Source of the DNA: an uncultured Pseudomonadota bacterium
Lineage (GTDB): Bacteria; Pseudomonadota; Alphaproteobacteria; UBA9219
Assembly (NCBI GenBank): GCA_903869345.1
Contig: CAIPYM010000053.1
Coordinates: 98-64,097, forward strand
Reading direction: 5' to 3'
Length of the DNA: 64,000 nucleotides
Shown here: in pieces, positions 29,760 to 38,971 of the stretch
Position numbering within the stretch: the stretch's first letter is position 1
Layout: every line of letters begins with the position of its first letter
Made by a program: the position numbers and the translations under genes
Notes under the pieces: generated by a model
Database searches by the model: none
Told to the model about the DNA's origin: nothing
What the model saw: only the letters and a program-made list of their open reading frames with translations

Positions 29760-31106
29760 TCACCCGGCCCTTTGCAACGTCTGCGCCAGGCTTTCCACGA
29801 CGTGGCGCACGAGGGGCTCGTCCTCGCCCTCGGCCATGACGCGCACCAAGGGCTCGGTCCCGGACTTGCGGATCAGCAAGCGCCCCGTGCCCTTCAGTTG
29901 GTCCTCGGCGGCCTGAACAGCGGCGCGAACGTTGGGGAGATCCAGCACGCTGGCAGGGGCTCGGACACTTTGCAAAACCTGGGGCAGAGGCTCAAAAAGG
30001 TGGCACACCTCGCTGGCGGGGCGGCCCTGGTTGCGCAGCACGGCAAGAATCTGCAGGGCGGCGATCAAGGCGTCGCCTGTGGGACTGTAATCGCTGAGGA
30101 CAATATGCCCCGACTGTTCGCCCCCGACGTTGCCCCCCTCGGCGTGCATGGCCTCCACCACGTACCGATCCCCCACGGCGGCGCGTGTCAGGCCGATACC
30201 TTGGGCGTTTAGGTACCGCTCGAGGCCCAAATTGGACATGACGGTGGCGACCACGCGCCCCCCCTTGAGACGGCCCGATTCGGCCCATGCGCGGGCAATC
30301 AGGGCGAGCAGTTGATCCCCGTTGATGACGCGGCCTTTTTCGTCGGCCAGGATGAGGCGATCCGCGTCGCCATCGAGCGCGAGGCCAAGGTCGGCCTTGT
30401 GCGCGATCACAGCGTCTTGCATCGATTGGGGGTGCGTAGCCCCACAGTTCAGGTTGATGTTGAGCCCGTCGGGGGCCACGGCCAGGGGAACGACCTCCGC
30501 GCCGAGTTCCCAGAGAATCAAGGGGGCGGCCTTGTACGCCGCGCCGTTCGCGCAATCCACAACAATCTTGAGGCCGTCCAGACGGAGGCCCGTGGGGAAC
30601 GTGCCTTTGACGTATTCCACGTACCGGCCCAACGCATCGTCCAAACGGCTTGCGCGACCGAGGTCTTTGGAATCGACAGGTGGCTCGGTCCGCGGGGTGG
30701 CGGGGTCCATCAGGTGCTCAATCTGCGTTTCCTTGTCGTCGGACAGCTTGGAGCCGTCGGGCGCGAACAGTTTGATGCCGTTGTCCTGGTAAGGGTTGTG
30801 CGAGGCCGAGATCATCACGCCCAAATCTGCCCGCAGGCTGCGCGTCAGAATCGCAACCGCCGGGGTGGGCAAGGGCCCGAGAAGGGTCACGTCCATGCCT
30901 TCCGCGATAAATCCCGCCGTGAGCGCGGGCTCAAGCAGGTACCCCGAAAGGCGCGTGTCCTTGCCGATCACGACGCGGTGACGGTGATGGCCTCGCCGGA
31001 AAAGCCGCGCTGCTGCCATGGCGACGGACAACGCCGTGGCTGCCGTCATGGGCTCTTGGTTAGCCTGTCCGCGAATCCCGTCGGTGCCGAAGAGTCTGCG
31101 AGTCAT
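29760..31106 (-). CDS. glmM: Phosphoglucosamine mutase
   Basis: [27 protein letters not shown]. Confidence 0.98.
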
Positions 31107-31245
31107 GGAACGCCTTGATCACGAGGGTAAGGGGCTGCTTCAGGGGTGGACGTCGTGTCGCCAAACCGCTAGGGCAGACGGGGGCTTGTTTCGGAGGGCA
31201 GAAGACACCCAAGGCCCAAAAGTCTCGGTCCTTTCGGCAGTGGGG

Positions 31246-31983
31246 TCAAGCCTTTTTCAGCCCTTTGTCGGCCTGTCGTGGCCAGGCGGTCAGAAAGGCG
31301 CGTGTTGTGAAAAAAGGTGTTTCAAACGGCGTGTAGCGCCTGAGTTCTTGGACAGTCACCTCGGCGGGCAGAGGAAGACTTCGGCCCGGAACATCGTTCA
31401 CCACGACGGCGGCCAGGGGCACATCCCGAGCGCGGAGGACCTCGAGAGCCGTGAGCGTTGGGCTGAGGCTCCCCACGAAACTGTCCGTGACAAGAAGAAG
31501 GGGGATCCGAAGGCCCTCCGCCCAGTCCAAGACCGTGGCGTTGTCCGTGATGGGGCTCATGATGCCCCCAAGACTTTCGAGGAGCACGACGTCCTCAGGC
31601 CCTTCCAGAGCGCGACGGCACCACGCGAGGAGTTCACGGACGATGAGGGGCCGTGTCGCCGCCAGGGAACGTGCCCCCGCCGCACGAGCCGCCATGGAAG
31701 GCGCGCGCGCGGCCTCCCACCGCCACGGGGACAGAGCTTCCAGGGCAGCAAGGCTCGACCCATCGTCCTCAGCGGGAGGGCGGAGAGGTCGCCCGAGCGC
31801 AGCACTCAACACACCTGCGTCGCTGGTCGCAGGGTCGGCGGGAGCATACCCGCTCATCAGGGGTTTGAACGCCGCGACGGTGCGCTGTTCGTGCCGTGTG
31901 GCGCGGATCAGGGAGGCCGTCACAAACGTTTTGCCGACGCCGGTCCCGGTCCCGGTGACGAAAAATCGCCCCTGGGACGTCAC
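31246..31983 (-). CDS. bioD: Dethiobiotin synthase
   Basis: FVTGTGTGVGKT, FKPLMSG, ESLGG. Confidence 0.9.
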   Translation of the reverse strand: MTSQGRFFVTGTGTGVGKTFVTASLIRATRHEQRTVAAFKPLMSGYAPADPATSDAGVLSAALGRPLRPPAEDDGSSLAALEALSPWRWEAARAPSMAARAAGARSLAATRPLIVRELLAWCRRALEGPEDVVLLESLGGIMSPITDNATVLDWAEGLRIPLLLVTDSFVGSLSPTLTALEVLRARDVPLAAVVVNDVPGRSLPLPAEVTVQELRRYTPFETPFFTTRAFLTAWPRQADKGLKKA

Positions 31984-32456
31984 ATGCCGTCCCCGTCATC
32001 GCCACTGCGCTCTTCGGGGAAATCCACACTGTCGGCCTTGAGCCCCGCGCTCATTTCATCGGCGTAGTTGATCCAGCGGCGTTTGAAAGCAACCCAGCAA
32101 ATTGCGGCCCACAGAATCCCCGGCCCCACCAAGAGCATAGCCGTCCACGCCGCTTGTTGACCCACGTCCTTGCCAGCCGGACAGAAAAGGGTGCCCCATT
32201 CGGTGGCCGCTGCGGAGCAAAGCCCCAGGCCCGAAACGCGACTGCCCACAACGGCGGCCATCCAAAGAGCGATGAAAGGCACTAAAACGGCCAAGATGCC
32301 CCGGAAGATATACCGTTGGCGGCTGATTTCCTGCACAAGCGCCAACTTGGACAGCCAACGCGCCAGGCGCACAAGCCCCCAAAACGCGAGGACAATCAGG
32401 AGCAGACCGGGCAAACGGTGCAAAAGCTCGGCGCCAAGGGAAGCAGGAGTGGGCAT
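31980..32456 (-). CDS. Hypothetical membrane protein (about 3 TM)
   Basis: Hydrophobic segments; stop overlaps the bioD start. Confidence 0.6.
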   Translation of the reverse strand: MPTPASLGAELLHRLPGLLLIVLAFWGLVRLARWLSKLALVQEISRQRYIFRGILAVLVPFIALWMAAVVGSRVSGLGLCSAAATEWGTLFCPAGKDVGQQAAWTAMLLVGPGILWAAICWVAFKRRWINYADEMSAGLKADSVDFPEERSGDDGDGM

Positions 32457-32582
32457 CGCGTCAGGTCCGTTCAAGGTGGGAAGGGGAACACAGGGGAAGG
32501 GATAAGGCGCTTTCGATCCGCGAAAGCCTAAGAATCCCACAGAAACGCCCCCGATTCAAGGACGGGGTTTTTACGTTCTCCC

Positions 32583-32622
32583 TTGACGAGAATCTGCCCC
32601 AGGTGATACTTTTAGTCATCAC
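32583..32622 (+). promoter_or_regulatory. Methyltransferase promoter with overlapping C-box-like site
   Basis: TTGACG -35 and GATACT/TACTTT -10; TACT-TTT-AGTCATC at 32607-32620 matches the C-boxes at 34968-34993. Confidence 0.6.
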
Positions 32623-32638
32623 TGCGGGGGGTGTCTAA

Positions 32639-33928
32639 ATGGTCTGCTCCAAGTCCACTGCTTCAAAACAATTGACGTTCATCGACCTGTTTTCCGGCGC
32701 GGGAGGCATGAGCTTTGGATTTCATGCTCATCCCGCCTTCCAAGTCACGGCCGCTTTAGACGGTGAGTTCGGAAAACCGAGCAGCGGGAAGGGAAAACTT
32801 GGCTGCAACAATACTTACCTCGCGAATATTTCGGTGTCTCCCATCGCCGTCGACTTAGCACACATTGAAGACCACGACATTGAGTCGATTCGAATGCAGC
32901 TCTTGGGGGGGCATAACCTTGATGTTCTGTCTGCCTGTCCTCCATGCACGGGGTTCTCGCGCACGAACCCAAACAACCATCTGACAGACGATCACCGCAA
33001 TAGTCTCGTTGTCCGGACTGAGAAATGGGTGCGTATTCTCAGCCCTAAGGTTCTTGTCATGGAAAATGCAAGAGAACTATTGAGAGGAAATTTCTCACAC
33101 CATTTTCGTGTGTTGAGACGATCTCTTGAGGAAATGGGATATGATGTGCATGCATCAATCCATATGCTGAATGAGTTTGGCCTTCCACAACGTCGCGAAC
33201 GAGCTTTGGTGATTGCAACTCGTCTCGCCAGTGGAGCAAAAAGTCTGGAGGACTTGTGGATGGGGCACCGGGTTGAGGAGGAGGCCACTACAGTTCATCG
33301 TTGCATAGCTCATCTCCCAAAGATCACAGCAGGTGAGTGTGATACTTTGGATCGTTTCCATGTGTCGCCAAGCATGAACCCTGATTCGTTAATTCGGCTC
33401 AGGGCTATTCCCAGGGATGGAGGTTCATGGATAGATTTGCGTCTCCGCAAAGATGGCCATCATTTGATGACTCCAGCCATGCGCCGATACGTTGAGGCTG
33501 AAGATTACGGCTCTCACCCCGACGTTTATGGACGGATGGCTTGGCAACGCCCAGCTGTAACGATTAAGAGAGAATGTGCTCATATTGGCAATGGGCGATA
33601 TGCACATCCCGACCAAGATCGCCTTTGTAGCGTTCGTGAAATGGCACTTCTTCAAGGGTTTCCTGAGACTTACAAGTTTGGAGGAAGGGCTATGTCGAAC
33701 ATGTATCGACATATAGGTGATGCTGTTCCTCCGCTGATTTCTTTCCAACTCGCACACCTCATCCATTGGATGTTTTCGGGCATTAAACCAGACATTAAGA
33801 GTTGTGTTTTGCCGAGGACAAGCTTGCATCCGGAGGATATCAGACCTGCTGAAAGAGCATGGAACAGACAACTTGCCTGGTTGCCTGAACCTGCCGAGAG
33901 CTCCGAAAAATTGTTGGCTTCAGTCTAA
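32639..33928 (+). CDS. DNA (cytosine-5)-methyltransferase of a Type II R-M system
   Basis: Motif I DLFSGAGG, motif IV PPCTGFS, motif VI ENA, motif VIII PQRRER, motifs IX/X REMALLQGFP...IGDAVPP; AT-rich. Confidence 0.95.
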   Translation: MVCSKSTASKQLTFIDLFSGAGGMSFGFHAHPAFQVTAALDGEFGKPSSGKGKLGCNNTYLANISVSPIAVDLAHIEDHDIESIRMQLLGGHNLDVLSACPPCTGFSRTNPNNHLTDDHRNSLVVRTEKWVRILSPKVLVMENARELLRGNFSHHFRVLRRSLEEMGYDVHASIHMLNEFGLPQRRERALVIATRLASGAKSLEDLWMGHRVEEEATTVHRCIAHLPKITAGECDTLDRFHVSPSMNPDSLIRLRAIPRDGGSWIDLRLRKDGHHLMTPAMRRYVEAEDYGSHPDVYGRMAWQRPAVTIKRECAHIGNGRYAHPDQDRLCSVREMALLQGFPETYKFGGRAMSNMYRHIGDAVPPLISFQLAHLIHWMFSGIKPDIKSCVLPRTSLHPEDIRPAERAWNRQLAWLPEPAESSEKLLASV

Positions 33929-34680
33929 TGACTAAGAAGGGAAACTTCCCATGTCGCGTGAATCTTGCATAGTCGCAGGGGGAGACTACGGACGGTTATT
34001 TTTTCAACCGAGCCATCTAAGCTTAGAACAAACCACACGCTCCCGTCGCTTCCTCGCACAGTAGCACGACTTGAACCGTTGGCTGTTTTTTTTGAAAAAT
34101 CGTTTGGGCACAATCGAGAGATTCCCAAAAGAATTTCTTTGGGAATCTCGACAAATTCATATTTAACAATCGAATCAGCAAGAAAAGAGCGAAGCGAAAC
34201 GATTCGCTCGTAATGCGCTAGGTGCGCCTTAACCCTTGTTTTTGCGTGCGTGCAAAAGTCATCTTGGGTCTCGCACTCGCGAATCCATCGGGCTTCCATG
34301 AGTTTTGATACATGGATGGAGGTTCGGCTAATTGACTGGCCACTTTCCGTTTTTAACGAAAACTTCTGCCCATCAACAACGACATCCTCCCCAGAATAGA
34401 CAGAATTTGATGTCTGATATGCTTGTCTGCCGGCCGCTCGCGAAGAACCACAAAAGAAATACTCGAATGTTTTCTTGGTCAGCGCGGCATCATGCATCGC
34501 ATGAAACAGTAAGAGACGGCCAGAAAAATCGTGCTCGAATGCCCTTACGACGATATCCGATTCTGCTGAAACATCCGCCACCACAGAGCGTGTCAGGGCA
34601 TGCCCCATTTCGATGAGAAGCCTGGTACGCTCAGGCGAAAGCTTGTTGACAAGGCTGGCAATTTCCTTTTGGGCACCCAT
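33925..34680 (-). CDS. SmaI-like Type II restriction endonuclease
   Basis: ALTKKTFE, GED-x7-FSLKTE (PD-(D/E)XK-like), IHVSKLME, YERIVSLR and VEIPK match my recollection of R.SmaI; AGGAG RBS. Confidence 0.8.
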   Translation of the reverse strand: MGAQKEIASLVNKLSPERTRLLIEMGHALTRSVVADVSAESDIVVRAFEHDFSGRLLLFHAMHDAALTKKTFEYFFCGSSRAAGRQAYQTSNSVYSGEDVVVDGQKFSLKTESGQSISRTSIHVSKLMEARWIRECETQDDFCTHAKTRVKAHLAHYERIVSLRSFLADSIVKYEFVEIPKEILLGISRLCPNDFSKKTANGSSRATVRGSDGSVWFVLSLDGSVEKITVRSLPLRLCKIHATWEVSLLSH

Positions 34681-34681
34681 T

Positions 34682-34942
34682 TCAACTCCTCCGTAGGAGA
34701 CCTGACTTCTCGTTTTCAACACAGCTCAGTAATGCGGGGGCAGAAAGCCCAAGGGCATAAGCAATCTTGGTTAAATTCAAAATCGATATATTTCGCTCTC
34801 CACGTTCCACGGACCCGATATAGGTTCTATGGAGCCCAACATTCTCTGCGAGGGCTTCTTGGCTCAAGCCCAATTCTACCCGATGGCGCCTGACTGTATT
34901 CCCAAGCCCAATGAGAATCGCTCGTTCGCTGTTCGTATTCAT
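34682..34942 (-). CDS. R-M controller (C) protein, XRE HTH
   Basis: [32 protein letters not shown]; directly upstream of the endonuclease. Confidence 0.92.
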
Positions 34943-34967
34943 AGCTTGAGCAGATTGAGGATTAGAT

Positions 34968-34993
34968 GACTTTAAGTCTAGAGACTATAAGTA
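34968..34993 (-). promoter_or_regulatory. Tandem C-box operator
   Basis: Minus strand TACTTATAGTC-TCTA-GACTTAAAGTC, matching the GACT-N3-AGTC-N4-GACT-N3-AGTC C-box of PvuII-type systems, ~25 nt upstream of the C gene. Confidence 0.88.
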
Positions 34994-35037
34994 GCATTGT
35001 GGGGCCGGAGGTGCAGGATGCACACTTTATCTGAATA

Positions 35038-35415
35038 GTGGAGCAAAAACGAGGGGCTGCGATTCTTTCCCTGCCCCTGCTGGCTGTTCTCTCCCCCGAA
35101 ACACGGGCTTTTTCGCTCACCCCCGAGAAATGGGGCCTGTTGATCGTGTCATCGACCCTCATCATCGGTATCGGGACAAATCTCTATTACAAAGGACTTC
35201 GGCGCGTGGACGTTCCGACGGCGAGTTTTCTGGAGATGACCTCGCCCCTTGTGTGCGTTCTGATGGGCTGTCTGTTTTTGAACGAGACGCTGACGCCTTC
35301 TCAGACCGCCGCCATGGTTGTCCTTTTGGCCGCCGTCTATCAGATCGTCCGTGTGAGCAGTTTGTCCAAAACGTCGACCAAGAGCCCGGCACCGATCTGT
35401 GAGAAGCAAGGATAA
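35038..35415 (+). pseudogene. C-terminal fragment of an EamA/DMT transporter
   Basis: LYYKGLRRVDVPTASFLEMTSPLVCVLMGCLFLNE = end of an EamA repeat; no N-terminal part; abuts the R-M cassette. Confidence 0.6.
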
Positions 35416-35508
35416 CGCGGGCTTTTTTCCTGAAGTTTAAGGTGAGAGGTTGGGATGAACCCCTTTGTCAAAAGCGGAAAACGGGTTTGACCTTCCCCAG
35501 ACCTCAAC

Positions 35509-36387
35509 CTACCCCCGCTCTGCTTCGTCCCTCTGTTTGCGCTCGTAGTGGCGCAGGTAGCGTTGGGCCATAAGGTTGGTCCGCACGATGATGCACACGT
35601 CCGTTGTGTTGAACGCCGTGTCCACGACCGCGCCGTCGCCGACAACCCCCCCGACGCGCAGGTAGCCTTTGATCAACGGAGGGAGCTGGTTCCCGCCGCT
35701 GCGTGGATCCAGCTTCAGCGTGTCAAACGCCTGTTCGGGGTTGAAGGCCTCGCGTGGCAAAAGGCGCATGTCCACGTACTTGTCGGGGAGCGCTCGGCAT
35801 CGAAGGCTTGGGGGCGCGAGATGGTCGTAATAGAGGTAGGACAAGGGGACCGCGAGCGCCTGAGGGTCCGTCCCCGGTAGACTCGCGCAGCCAAACATCA
35901 GCCGAATGTCGTGCTGGAAAATGTAGGCCGCGAGGCCTTTCCAAAGAATCTGCATGACCGCCCCGGTGCGGTAGTCGGCATCAATGCAGGATCGCCCGAG
36001 TTCCAGAATCTCGCCGGGGTAACGTTCGAGCGGAGACAGATCATACTCGCTGGCCGAATAGAACCCGCCGTGTTGGTGCGCGACGGCGCGGCGCAAAAGC
36101 CGGTAGGTTCCGACCACGCGCGGGGCGCGATCGTTTTCCCCCTGGTCCAAAACCAACAGATGATCGCAGATCGCATCAAACGAATCGTGGTCGCGCCGAG
36201 CGGCACGAAGGGCGGGCAAGGGTTGCGCCCCCATCTCGTCGTAAAAAACGTGGTAGCGCAGCTCTTGGGCGGCCTGAATCTCGGCCGGGCTTGCCGCGAG
36301 GCGAACCTCCAGCGTTCCCGCGGTGATCCGTTCAGGCAGTGCGGACGGGGAACAAACGCCAAGCGGGGGCACAAACGAACACTCCAC
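35509..36387 (-). CDS. olsB: Ornithine lipid N-acyltransferase (GNAT); start uncertain
   Basis: AQELRYHVF, DSFDAICDHL, VVGTYRL, ELGRSC, LPPLIKGYLRVG. Confidence 0.85.
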   Translation of the reverse strand: MECSFVPPLGVCSPSALPERITAGTLEVRLAASPAEIQAAQELRYHVFYDEMGAQPLPALRAARRDHDSFDAICDHLLVLDQGENDRAPRVVGTYRLLRRAVAHQHGGFYSASEYDLSPLERYPGEILELGRSCIDADYRTGAVMQILWKGLAAYIFQHDIRLMFGCASLPGTDPQALAVPLSYLYYDHLAPPSLRCRALPDKYVDMRLLPREAFNPEQAFDTLKLDPRSGGNQLPPLIKGYLRVGGVVGDGAVVDTAFNTTDVCIIVRTNLMAQRYLRHYERKQRDEAERG

Positions 36388-36604
36388 GGAAACCAACCTG
36401 ACGATGATCCTACCCCGCTTTCGCTCGCGAAGCCAGCGCAGGAGCGGCAGCGCAGCGGCGGTTCCCAGCCCCCCTTTGTTGCCAACGTGTTGCAAAGGGC
36501 TTGCTTTCGCGGAAAGGCGACGGTAGAAAGGGGGCTTCGGCGCGTCCGGGCCTCCGACATGCCTGGCCGCCTTTTGTTCAACATCCAACCCTCAGGGGAT
36601 CCAA

Positions 36605-36805
36605 ATGTCGAAACTCAAGACCCACAGCGGGTCCAAAAAGCGCTTTCGCGTCACCGGGGGCCGTCTTGTGAAAGCCGGTGCCGCCGGACGCCGTCATGGA
36701 CTACGGAAGCGGCCCCAGAAAATGAAGCGCGAGTCGCGCGGGGTGATGATCCTGTTCAAGACGGACGGGGACAACATCCTCAAGCATTTTCTGCGCAACG
36801 CTTAA
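36605..36805 (+). CDS. rpmI: 50S ribosomal protein L35
   Basis: [18 protein letters not shown]. Confidence 0.96.
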
Positions 36806-36823
36806 GCCCGAGGGAGATCCGCT

Positions 36824-37207
36824 ATGGCACGTGTCAAAAGAGGCGTGACGACTCACGCCCGTCATCAAGAAATGGTCAAGCTGGCTGCCGGGTACCGTGG
36901 GCGGTCCAGCACCAATTTTCGGATGGCGATTGAAAAAGTTGAAAAGGCCCTTCGCTACGCCTACCGCGACCGTCGCAACCGCAAGCGCGACTTTCGGGCC
37001 CTCTGGATCGTTCGCATCAACGCGGGCGTCCGGGCGGAAGGCCTGACGTACGCGCGTTTCATGAACGGCCTCAAGAAAGCCGGGATCACGGTGGACCGCA
37101 AGCAGCTGGCCGAGCTCGCGGCCACGCAGCCCGAGGCGTTCTCCGCCCTGGTCCAGCAGGCCCGCGCTGCGTTAGAAGCCCCCGCTGCTTCGCCTTCCGC
37201 CGCCTGA
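36824..37207 (+). CDS. rplT: 50S ribosomal protein L20
   Basis: [25 protein letters not shown]. Confidence 0.98.
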
Positions 37208-37234
37208 TGGTGGCCCTTTCCTGATGGAACGGCC

Positions 37235-38971
37235 ATGCGGCTAGAGCGCCACAGCTCGCGGACGCTTGAGCCCCTGTCCTCCGGGGGGCTTTCCAGGTTT
37301 GGGATTGTGTTGGTTGTTCTGGGCACACTGCTGCTCGGCTTTGCGGCGATGGCCGTTTTGCCGATGTTTGAGGGCCCCGACGAGGAGGCGCATGTCTCCA
37401 GCGTCCTCCAGATTGCCTCCACCGGGCGGGCCCCCGTTTACGGGGAGGACGGGTTTGCACGTGCCGTCACCGCCTATTGGCATCACGGTCCTCTGTTTAT
37501 CCCTGCCGCCGCAACGTTCCAGCATCCCGGCAGTGTGTTTTACCGGGCTTTTTTCCAAGATTCTCAAAAGGTCGCGGCCTACGGCCCCCTGTACCGCGAG
37601 GGACCCGCGCCGCACGATTACGTGTCCGACCCCGCGATAGTGAACTGGCAGGCTCAACATCCTCCCGCTTATTACGTCCTGATGGCGGGCGTGATGCACC
37701 TCACGCAAGCCCTGCCCTGGGTCACACAAACGTTCGTGCTCCGTGGGTTTTCGTTTTTGCTCGCGTACGCGGGCTTGCTTCTTGGGCTCATGGGGGCTCT
37801 TCGCGCCGCGTCGTCGTCCGACGAGCGCCGTTGTCTCACATGCGCTTTTCTGTTGTACCCGGTTCTTTTCCCGTCCTTTTTTGCCGAGTTTGGGCGGATT
37901 GGAAACGATTCCTTGTGCCTGTTTCTGACGGGAGCCATTGCCGCGCAGCTGGCCCTCGAACCCCGGCAGCCTCACCGTCCTTTTCATCATGTTCTTTTAG
38001 GGGGTTTGTTTGCCCTTGGACTTCTGACCAAAGGCTTTTTCCTGCCGTTCACGGCGGGCTACGTGGCGTGGCGGCTCATCCCCCTCGTCCGGGACCGTCG
38101 TGATCAAGCCCTGACTCGCGCCCGGTGGGAGGAGCTGGAATACTGGGGAGCCCCCGTTGTTCTGACGATGATCTGGTACGCTTCCAAGGCTCTCGTCTAC
38201 GGTTCCTTCCTCGGCGGAGCTGATGGGATCGTGCTGAAGGGGTACGGGGGGCTCACGGTTGAGACCCTTGCGTGGCGTTTTGATCCCCCCGTCTTTCTCC
38301 ACATCCTGGCGAACATCTTGCAAACATGGAGTTGGTTCGGAGGGGGAAGCTATTGGCAAATGCCGCTTGGATTTTCACTGCTTCTTCTGATGCTTCCGCT
38401 GGGCTTGCTTGTCGCCGCCCTGAAACCCCTCCGGCGTGAAAAACCGACAGCCTTCGCGTCACTCGGATTCTTTTGGATAGGGTTGATGGTTCTCGGCTTT
38501 TTGCACCATATTTTGGTGTGTTTGGCGCTTGCAGGGTTTGGAGCCACCCCCGGATGGTACCTCAACATCCTGATCCCTGTGTGGGGCGTGTGGCTCGCCA
38601 AAGGCCTCGGGGTCGTCGTACCTTCACGCCCCCTTCGGGGAATCGTCGTCGCGCTCGCAACCCTTCATATCCTCGCTCTGCCTGTCTTGATGATCGCCCA
38701 AGCGTTTTTCTTTGCAGGGCTTGCCGATCTCAGCCCCGACAGGCACGTGGTGCTTAACGCCGGATGGGACTCGCCCGCGACATGGGGCCTGCTCCGCGAA
38801 CGCCTGGGGGTTCTCGGATGGCCCGACCTTGCGGCGGTCGGCCTTGTCGTTGGCGGGATCAGCTTGGCGATGGGGGCTGCCCTCGTGGGACGCTCCCTTT
38901 TCCGGTCTTCAACGGCACCGCAAACCCTTAACCCGCGACGATGTTCACAATCTTGCCCGGCACAACGATGA
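37235..38971 (+). CDS. GT-C fold membrane glycosyltransferase-like protein (DUF2142/PMT-like)
   Basis: [26 protein letters not shown], more than 10 TM segments. Confidence 0.7.

Follow-up and report, generated by a model that had tools for sequence, protein, structure and literature searches.

How does an endonuclease of the SmaI restriction family come to stand beside a cytosine methyltransferase of another chemical class, and which DNA site do the two enzymes share? These questions are raised by a compact gene cassette in the genome of an uncultured alphaproteobacterium (GTDB lineage UBA9219; assembly GCA_903869345.1), from which we analyzed one stretch of 64,000 nucleotides (contig CAIPYM010000053.1, positions 98 to 64,097), referred to here as the window; all coordinates count from its first nucleotide. 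The cassette encodes a SmaI-family Type IIP restriction endonuclease (R), a C5 cytosine DNA methyltransferase (MTase; M) and a controller protein (C). We find that the pairing of such an endonuclease with a C5 MTase is the character of an old and large clade within the SmaI family. We consider it probable that the cassette is an intact, horizontally acquired, controller-type Type IIP restriction-modification (R-M) system whose target is CCCGGG, protected by 5-methylcytosine (m5C).

Architecture of the cassette

The cassette occupies a low-GC island of 2.5 kb (approximately 32541-35037), with a GC content of 0.46-0.50 inside the block versus 0.62-0.67 in the flanks; the host genome as a whole measures 1.74 Mb at a GC content of 0.61. 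The island holds three intact open reading frames (ORFs), with M on the plus strand converging on a C-R operon on the minus strand, and the ORF ends of M and R overlap by 4 nt (M stop TAA at 33926-33928, R stop TAG at 33927-33925; Table 1). An earlier note, written from the letters of this DNA alone, had described an AT-rich block in which M converges on C-R with a 4-nt overlap of stop codons, and had assigned it to a C-controlled R-M cassette that combines a SmaI-family endonuclease with a C5 MTase. The base composition and stop-codon coordinates agree with the first description, and matches to PF17411, PF00145 and PADLOC Control_protein, together with the predicted C-boxes, bear out the second.

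Table 1. Features of the cassette and its borders, in window coordinates
Feature	Position	Strand	Basis or remark
R, SmaI-family Type IIP restriction endonuclease, 251 aa	33925..34680	-	PF17411, PADLOC REase_II, AlphaFold (AF2) fold
M, C5 cytosine DNA methyltransferase, 429 aa	32639..33928	+	PF00145, TIGR00675, PADLOC MTase_II
C, controller protein, 86 aa, helix-turn-helix family HTH_3	34682..34942	-	PF01381, PADLOC Control_protein
Predicted Shine-Dalgarno sequence for R, GGAGGAG	34692-34686	-	within the 3' end of C
Predicted double C-box, ATGC-TACTTATAGTC-TCTA-GACTTAAAGTC-ATC	34997-34965	-	sequence and pattern scan
Sigma-70-like promoter of M, TTGACG (32583-32588), 16-nt spacer, GATACT (32605-32610)	32583..32610	+	consensus match only
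Predicted single C-box, O_M-like, TACTTTTAGTC	32607..32617		overlaps the -10 element of the M promoter
G+C-rich hairpin followed by a T-run	32541..32573		left edge of the low-GC island, where the GC drop starts
C-terminal fragment of an EamA/DMT transporter gene, 125 aa	35038..35415	+	abuts the island; PF00892, TIGR00950

The endonuclease and the methyltransferase

R exceeds the gathering threshold of the Pfam SmaI family PF17411 (64.5 bits against a cut-off of 27.3; E-value 1.3e-17; model positions 32-239 of 240), which establishes homology at the level of the Pfam family and not of the type enzyme R.SmaI, and it matches the PADLOC profile REase_II at 2.2e-26. As called, its ORF spans 33925..34722 on the minus strand. 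Translation likely starts at the ATG at 34680 and not at the GTG at 34722, because the former codon lies 1 nt after the stop of C, has GGAGGAG ahead of it and yields a protein of 251 residues, which is the length of the database entry and similar to that of the orthologues. The earlier note had seen SmaI-like blocks in R. These are found in the translation as ALTKKTFEY, SLKTE, IHVSKLME, YERI and VEIPK, and they align with columns conserved in the high-scoring SmaI clade described below, the consensus of which reads LSKxxFEYA, SLKTQ, IHISKFME, YxRIF and YELVEIPK.

The AlphaFold (AF2) model of R, built on a 20-sequence alignment (mean pLDDT 93.8), displays the PD-(D/E)XK core of restriction enzymes. 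Its best structural match by VIA-align is ThaI (3ndh; Z 9.3, rmsd 4.1, 169 residues). MspI, NhoI, HinP1I, NaeI, BglI, SwaI, EcoRV, DpnI and PvuII follow at Z 5.9-7.7, a range in which, as for any Z below 8, the similarity may reflect nothing beyond the common nuclease core. Foldseek returned no match of the model to PDB entries at E <= 0.001, comparison of the sequence with proteins of solved structure produced no meaningful hit (best E 0.048), and R has no match in the phage collection. E73, D99, S108-x-K110 and E129 are candidate catalytic residues. Across 20 sequences from the C5-partnered clade and 15 from the N4-partnered clade, 22 columns are invariant, including E73, D99, S108, K110, K126 and E129.

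M matches PF00145 (1.5e-43), TIGR00675 and PADLOC MTase_II (7.4e-69), and contains the C5-MTase motifs I, IV, VI, VIII and X as FSGAGG, PPCTG, ENA, QRRER and GDAVPP. By profile and by these five motifs it belongs to the C5 cytosine DNA methyltransferases and is predicted to be catalytically competent. FSGAGG, PPC, QRRER and the replacement of ENV by ENA had been pointed out in the earlier note; all are in the translation and are common to the M family. Of 120 proteins that match M in its variable (target-recognition) region (residues 196-300), all have ENA and 118 have GDAVPP; since both are family-wide, the unusual motif forms are family features and not signs of decay. The names returned by the search with this region were generic only. 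M is the sole PF00145 match in the host genome.

Endonuclease-methyltransferase pairing across the SmaI family

Is the C5 partner peculiar to this locus or is it shared by the relatives of R? In a 90%-clustered database, R has 185 homologues at E <= 0.001, and all 120 of those listed carry PF17411; the closest among the matches listed are 63-80% identical and come from metagenomes, Aquitalea magnusonii and Limnobacter. In a 50%-clustered library, 347 clusters match R. A scan for carriers, limited to one genome per species, yielded 57 loci, and in 54 of them an orthologous C5 methylase (tblastn match to M, 42-60% identity) lies beside the R match. M is usually convergent to R in those loci; eight cyanobacterial ones have it on the opposite strand and upstream of R. 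An M match is missing from three loci, of which one stops at a contig edge (L051) and two continue for several kb downstream with no M (L018, L056). One genome, G045, which holds L025, adds one row to the locus, word and box counts and to the tree; no claim depends on it.

The PF17411 scores split the family, with 16 of 142 representatives at 170-301 bits and the others at 137 bits or less; R and the high-scoring set share 27-31% identity. When the alignment of this set was used to scan metagenomes, 77 of the 80 loci retrieved had a convergent MTase of the PF01555 type, none had a C5 MTase, and the remaining three lay at contig edges. The 77 MTases are 59-70% identical to the enzyme of a 4.4-kb Klebsiella plasmid, which encodes a C protein of 80 aa, an R of 246 aa (173 bits to PF17411) and a convergent 282-aa PF01555 MTase; relative to the cassette, the plasmid R is 32% identical (E 1e-25) and the plasmid C 55% identical. 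We term this N4-partnered clade SmaI-like on the strength of its Pfam scores, its N4-type partner and a 2007 statement on REBASE entries. According to the available text of the 2007 paper (PMC1920265), six of six SmaI-family members in REBASE were accompanied by N4-methylcytosine (m4C) MTases. The cassette departs from this rule, and partners of the N4 type occur only in the sister clade. The names of ten SmaI-like representatives, retrieved by cluster look-up, were only 'hypothetical protein' or 'type II restriction enzyme'.

The same division emerges from a quick maximum-likelihood tree of 122 R proteins, for which 20 of 142 candidates (141 loci and the window) were dropped because their matches were short or interrupted. 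The rows fall into sets of 78 and 44, parted by a branch of length 3.07 with SH-aLRT support of 100%. The larger side comprises 74 rows with an N4-type MTase and 4 without a detected MTase. The smaller comprises 42 rows with a C5 MTase, 1 with none and 1 Arthrobacter row, whose placement on a branch 4.75 long is unreliable. On the corresponding Arthrobacter plasmid, the R (26% identical) and an N4-type MTase are arranged in tandem. A Deinococcus plasmid combines a 32%-identical R with a convergent annotated C5 MTase that is 47% identical to M.

The pairing of R with a C5 MTase is thus the character of an old, large clade and not a local swap, with C5 enzymes in 54 of 57 loci on one side and N4-type enzymes in 77 of 80 in the sister clade. 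The earlier note had raised a 'methyltransferase-swapped' system; the difference in MTase class stands, and the idea of an exchange at this locus does not.

The recognition site

Which sequence does the enzyme of the window recognize? CCCGGG, the site that gave the family its name, is probably the answer, as judged from word statistics. Of all hexamers with an expectation of at least 60 in the host genome, it is the one most strongly depleted, with 23 occurrences observed versus 767 expected (ratio 0.03), and the 64-kb contig of the window has none. The depletion concerns the hexamer and not the pentamer CCCGG, for which the counts on both strands are 1542 for CCCGGA, 2646 for CCCGGC, 1100 for CCCGGT and 46 for CCCGGG. 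Relative to the reverse word GGGCCC, CCCGGG stands at 23 to 830 (ratio 0.028), which is the lowest among 21 related genomes, and among these 21 the host alone has a PF17411 gene. A close homologue of a SmaI-type (N4/N6) MTase was not found in the host genome, whose remaining MTases comprise a CcrM-like enzyme, a Type III mod beside res, a 715-aa PF01555 protein (contig C66), three Type ISP enzymes, one Eco57I-type enzyme and two N6_N4 MTase-Mrr_cat fusions, one on contig C21 and one, broken by an in-frame TGA, on contig C75. A deamination signature in the host, such as an excess of CCTGGG/CCCAGG, was not seen (ratios 1.03-1.09).

The carriers of related cassettes extend this observation. When the 57 carrier loci are pooled (484 kb), no palindromic hexamer is more depleted than CCCGGG (25 vs 88). 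Among cyanobacteria, the median density of CCCGGG is 2.4 per Mb in the 26 carriers and 56.6 per Mb in 120 evenly sampled genomes of the class, and 19 of the 26, versus 11 of the 120, fall below 5 per Mb. An AvaI-type system for CYCGRG was ruled out as the source of the depletion in approximately 12 cyanobacterial carriers, in which CTCGAG is far less depleted than CCCGGG (392 vs 15 in G028, 636 vs 16 in G040, 2690 vs 24 in G052 and 239 vs 7 in G055). Methylation of CCCGGG at the C5 position does exist in nature, since nanopore sequencing detected a 5mC CCCGGG motif with no linked enzyme in one Vibrio isolate, according to the available text of a preprint (bioRxiv 10.64898/2026.09.10.750592). 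M.MmnI was considered as an m5C CCCGGG methylase and rejected, as the accessible part of its description (PMC10082018) makes it a CCNGG-type enzyme.

The strongest alternative keeps the same architecture and assigns another site, probably a CG-containing, GC-rich palindrome, to the whole C5-partnered SmaI-fold clade, with the CCCGGG depletion as a legacy of other enzymes, past or external. Several observations speak for it and weigh against CCCGGG as the target of the cassette. The identity of 27-31% between R and the N4-partnered clade is at a level where restriction endonucleases often differ in site, and the branch that separates the two clades is very long. Many non-cyanobacterial carriers (G022, G027, G035, G039, G044, G054 and others) show no depletion of CCCGGG, with 2902 vs 2209 in G022, 1049 vs 716 in G027, 836 vs 668 in G035 and 2806 vs 1701 in G054, and G022, G027 and G035 hold the nearest tree neighbours of the window (L002, L007 and L015). 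The Oscillatoriaceae carriers G036, G042 and G043 are likewise undepleted. Conversely, four relatives of the host that lack PF17411 (G019, G018, G001 and G003) are 4- to 15-fold depleted in CCCGGG. The host itself also depletes CCGCGG (0.09), GCCGGC (0.11), GGCGCC (0.21) and GCGCGC (0.29), and no resident Type IIP system for these four palindromes was found in its genome; depletion may therefore occur without a resident enzyme. Further points weigh against the main reading. The comparison of carriers with their background ignores phylogeny and base composition, and GGGCCC too is 3.5-fold lower in carriers. The low GC content of the island suggests a recent arrival, with which a 33-fold depletion of CCCGGG is hard to reconcile, and no RNA sequencing run that contains the stretch was listed.

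Against the assignment of another site stand three points. The most depleted hexamer of the host, and likewise of the pooled carrier loci, is the very word that named the family. The association with CCCGGG in cyanobacterial carriers is strong and is unexplained by CYCGRG systems. Both clades keep the candidate catalytic residues, and many further columns, unchanged. On balance, the word statistics favour a CCCGGG system with another class of MTase over a SmaI fold with another specificity, and we regard a different site for the whole clade as unlikely. A related and still tentative idea, to which we give slightly more credence, is that the C5-partnered SmaI-fold branch forms a separate, uncharacterized lineage in which individual members or sub-branches recognize a site other than CCCGGG. 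Candidates may be the sub-branches from hosts in which CCCGGG is not depleted, namely the alphaproteobacterial and Oscillatoriaceae ones. If this idea is true, such a branch would be a source of new specificities, and it would have kept the restriction fold and the controller circuit while both methylase class and target changed.

Two of the Oscillatoriaceae carriers, G036 (L016) and G042 (L022), show a further pattern, with 215 and 400 CCCGGG sites and a strong depletion of GGGCCC (9 and 24). The latter is probably unrelated to the system, because many cyanobacteria that lack it show the same depletion.

Controller protein and regulatory elements

C is a small Xre-type helix-turn-helix (HTH) protein encoded just upstream of R, with matches to PF01381 (4.4e-14) and PADLOC Control_protein (4.9e-23). 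Its nearest solved structures are C.BclI (4e-15), C.AhdI (8.7e-13) and C.Esp1396I (7.5e-7). The stop codon of C (TGA, 34684-34682) is separated from the R start by 1 nt, and this arrangement, with a ribosome-binding sequence for R inside the end of C, suggests that translation of the two genes is coupled.

Ahead of C lies a predicted double C-box, TACTTATAGTC-TCTA-GACTTAAAGTC (34993-34968), which is composed of O_L (34993-34983) and O_R (34978-34968), ends 25 nt before the C start and fits the published consensus GACT(N3)AGTC(N4)GACT(N3)AGTC, as given in the accessible part of PMC3488213. Among 20 homologous loci in which C adjoins R, 10 contain the pattern ACT(N3)AGT at 30-50 nt upstream of the C start, and the remaining ones show degenerate double boxes by eye.

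The promoter of M is the only promoter-like site that a scan of 32400-35200 returned, and its -10 element is overlapped by a single predicted C operator of the Esp1396I type, TACTTTTAGTC, embedded in the 20-nt sequence GTGATACTTTTAGTCATCAC (32603-32622). Across the 64-kb window, the pattern ACTTNNAGTC has 4 strand-wise matches vs 0.89 expected; they fall at just 3 places, each of them in one of the two promoter regions of the cassette. A single-box search was applied to 43 loci with a placeable M start, and GATACTTATAGTCATC was found approximately 31 nt ahead of M in five (L006, L008, L009, L011 and L014); near-matches are visible by eye in L005, L046, L047, L053, L001, L004, L010 and L044. 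The matches before M in L021 and L052 look like chance and were set aside.

Other forms of control appear in cyanobacterial relatives. Five cyanobacterial loci with M on the opposite strand, upstream of R, and without a detected C gene (L028, L037, L038, L039 and L043) have another conserved repeat before M, ...CATTGTGTTACA... and ...TCTCACAATGTGTTACA..., a hint that this sub-branch is controlled differently. In a further set of proteins of 333-359 aa, mostly cyanobacterial, an N-terminal C-like HTH is fused to the SmaI domain (P0051, P0055, P0059, P0066, P0069, P0099, P0168 and P0222). C-endonuclease fusions have been characterized among PvuII relatives (PMC3850674).

Proposed mechanism

How might these elements work together? 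By analogy with characterized controller systems, M would be made first from its own sigma-70-like promoter and would methylate the target site. C would then build up slowly, bind the double C-box and first activate, then limit, the C-R transcript, from which R would be translated using the ribosome-binding site inside the end of C. Bound to the single box over the -10 element, C would turn M down, as in Esp1396I. R, presumably acting as a homodimer, would cut those sites that remain unmethylated.

It is very improbable that the cassette is instead a decaying or silent remnant without present-day restriction, with R or M inactive or M an orphan methylase: a truncated transporter gene flanks the island, the R genes of some homologous loci are broken (split matches in L038, L046 and L053, a truncated one in L044) and the absence of the stretch from the RNA runs would fit silence, but all three ORFs are open and of full length relative to their orthologues, R retains 22 of the 22 columns that are invariant across 35 family members, M retains motifs I, IV, VI, VIII and X in their family form, and both operators and the M promoter are intact.

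Borders of the island and genomic context

At the right edge, an EamA gene is cut down to its last 125 codons, which suggests insertion accompanied by deletion. The fragment covers positions 41-134 of 135 of PF00892 and 170-263 of 264 of TIGR00950 and lacks approximately 170 N-terminal residues; it is probably an insertion or deletion scar that lies outside the R-M system. Over 77 nt, the fragment shows 74% identity to contig C64 of the host genome. The cassette contains no integrase or transposase, and its flanks revealed no notable repeats, direct or inverted. When the DNA of 31000-37000 was searched against 20 relatives, only the flanking genes matched, on separate contigs, with neither synteny nor a cassette. 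Because the relatives lack synteny here, an empty site is not recoverable and the insertion was not reconstructed. Among the contigs of four pond-metagenome runs compared with 30500-37500, none has a joint that skips the island, and those of two runs, possibly from the source sample, are continuous across both island junctions.

At the left edge, the hairpin was identified by a terminator-like scan on the minus strand (32564->32546), and it would be expected to halt read-through out of the cassette. T-runs flank it on both sides, its position is the exact left GC boundary of the island, and it sits between the start of a divergent membrane-protein ORF (31980-32540), for which no Pfam match was found, and the M promoter.

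Significance

The mechanism proposed here is orthodox, that is, Type IIP, C-controlled and under dual control of the Esp1396I kind, and the system is common in sequence databases; general understanding of restriction-modification is left unchanged by the C5-partnered branch. What the branch adds is a view of the SmaI endonuclease family as two old lineages that share the same nuclease core and differ in protection by m4C or m5C, with C-R units and a convergent methylase present in both. If the site is CCCGGG, the two lineages would constitute a natural case of one restriction fold served by two methylation chemistries. SmaI is sensitive to CpG methylation, and protection of CCCGGG by m5C would fit this property. 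PMC open-access papers and bioRxiv yielded neither a published SmaI-family endonuclease with an m5C partner nor a recognition of the C5 pairing as a large sister clade; REBASE may well list such genes as putative. With at least 57 species-level genomes and no member characterized in that literature, the branch is an easy source of new reagents and possibly of new specificities.

Comparison with known systems

In fold, the R model comes closest to ThaI (CG^CG), and EcoRV, PvuII, NaeI and SwaI, blunt-cutting PD-(D/E)XK enzymes as well, are among its best structural matches; in sequence, R has no detectable similarity to these blunt cutters.

In regulation, the closest parallel is Esp1396I, which is described in the accessible part of PMC3488213 as having convergent M and C-R units, a double C-box O_L/O_R before C and repression of M by C at O_M. 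The cassette likewise has a convergent M and C-R, a predicted double box before C and a single box at the M promoter. The two systems differ in that their enzymes and specificities are unrelated, C.BclI and C.AhdI are nearer relatives of the cassette C than C.Esp1396I is, and O_M of Esp1396I overlaps the transcription start whereas the box of the cassette overlaps the predicted -10 element.

In methylation chemistry, the parallel is TspMI of Thermus sp. (C^CCGGG), for which an m5C MTase (M.TspMI, GenBank EF426476) is reported in the available text of PMC1920265, so that m5C protection of CCCGGG is already documented, with a different endonuclease family. The premise of the earlier note, which named SmaI, XmaI and Cfr9I as CCCGGG enzymes protected by N4-cytosine MTases, accordingly holds for the SmaI family as REBASE listed it in 2007 and is incomplete as a general rule. 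The parallel with the cassette lies in the m5C MTase and, probably, in the site. R.TspMI is described there as a third family, remotely BsoBI-like and distinct from SmaI and XmaI, with a V (mismatch-nicking) gene present in the system, whereas the cassette R belongs to PF17411 and no Vsr (PF03852) was found in the host genome.

In endonuclease family, finally, the cassette belongs with the SmaI system of Serratia marcescens (C.SmaI, R.SmaI and M.SmaI). It differs from the SmaI-like clade in its partner, which is a C5 MTase (PF00145) in place of an N4/N6-type one (PF01555), and in the low sequence identity of R to that clade. It shares with SmaI the endonuclease family PF17411 and with the SmaI-like clade the D...SxK...E columns of R and, as judged from the Klebsiella plasmid member, a C gene upstream of R with a convergent M. 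The site is probably also the same, CCCGGG.

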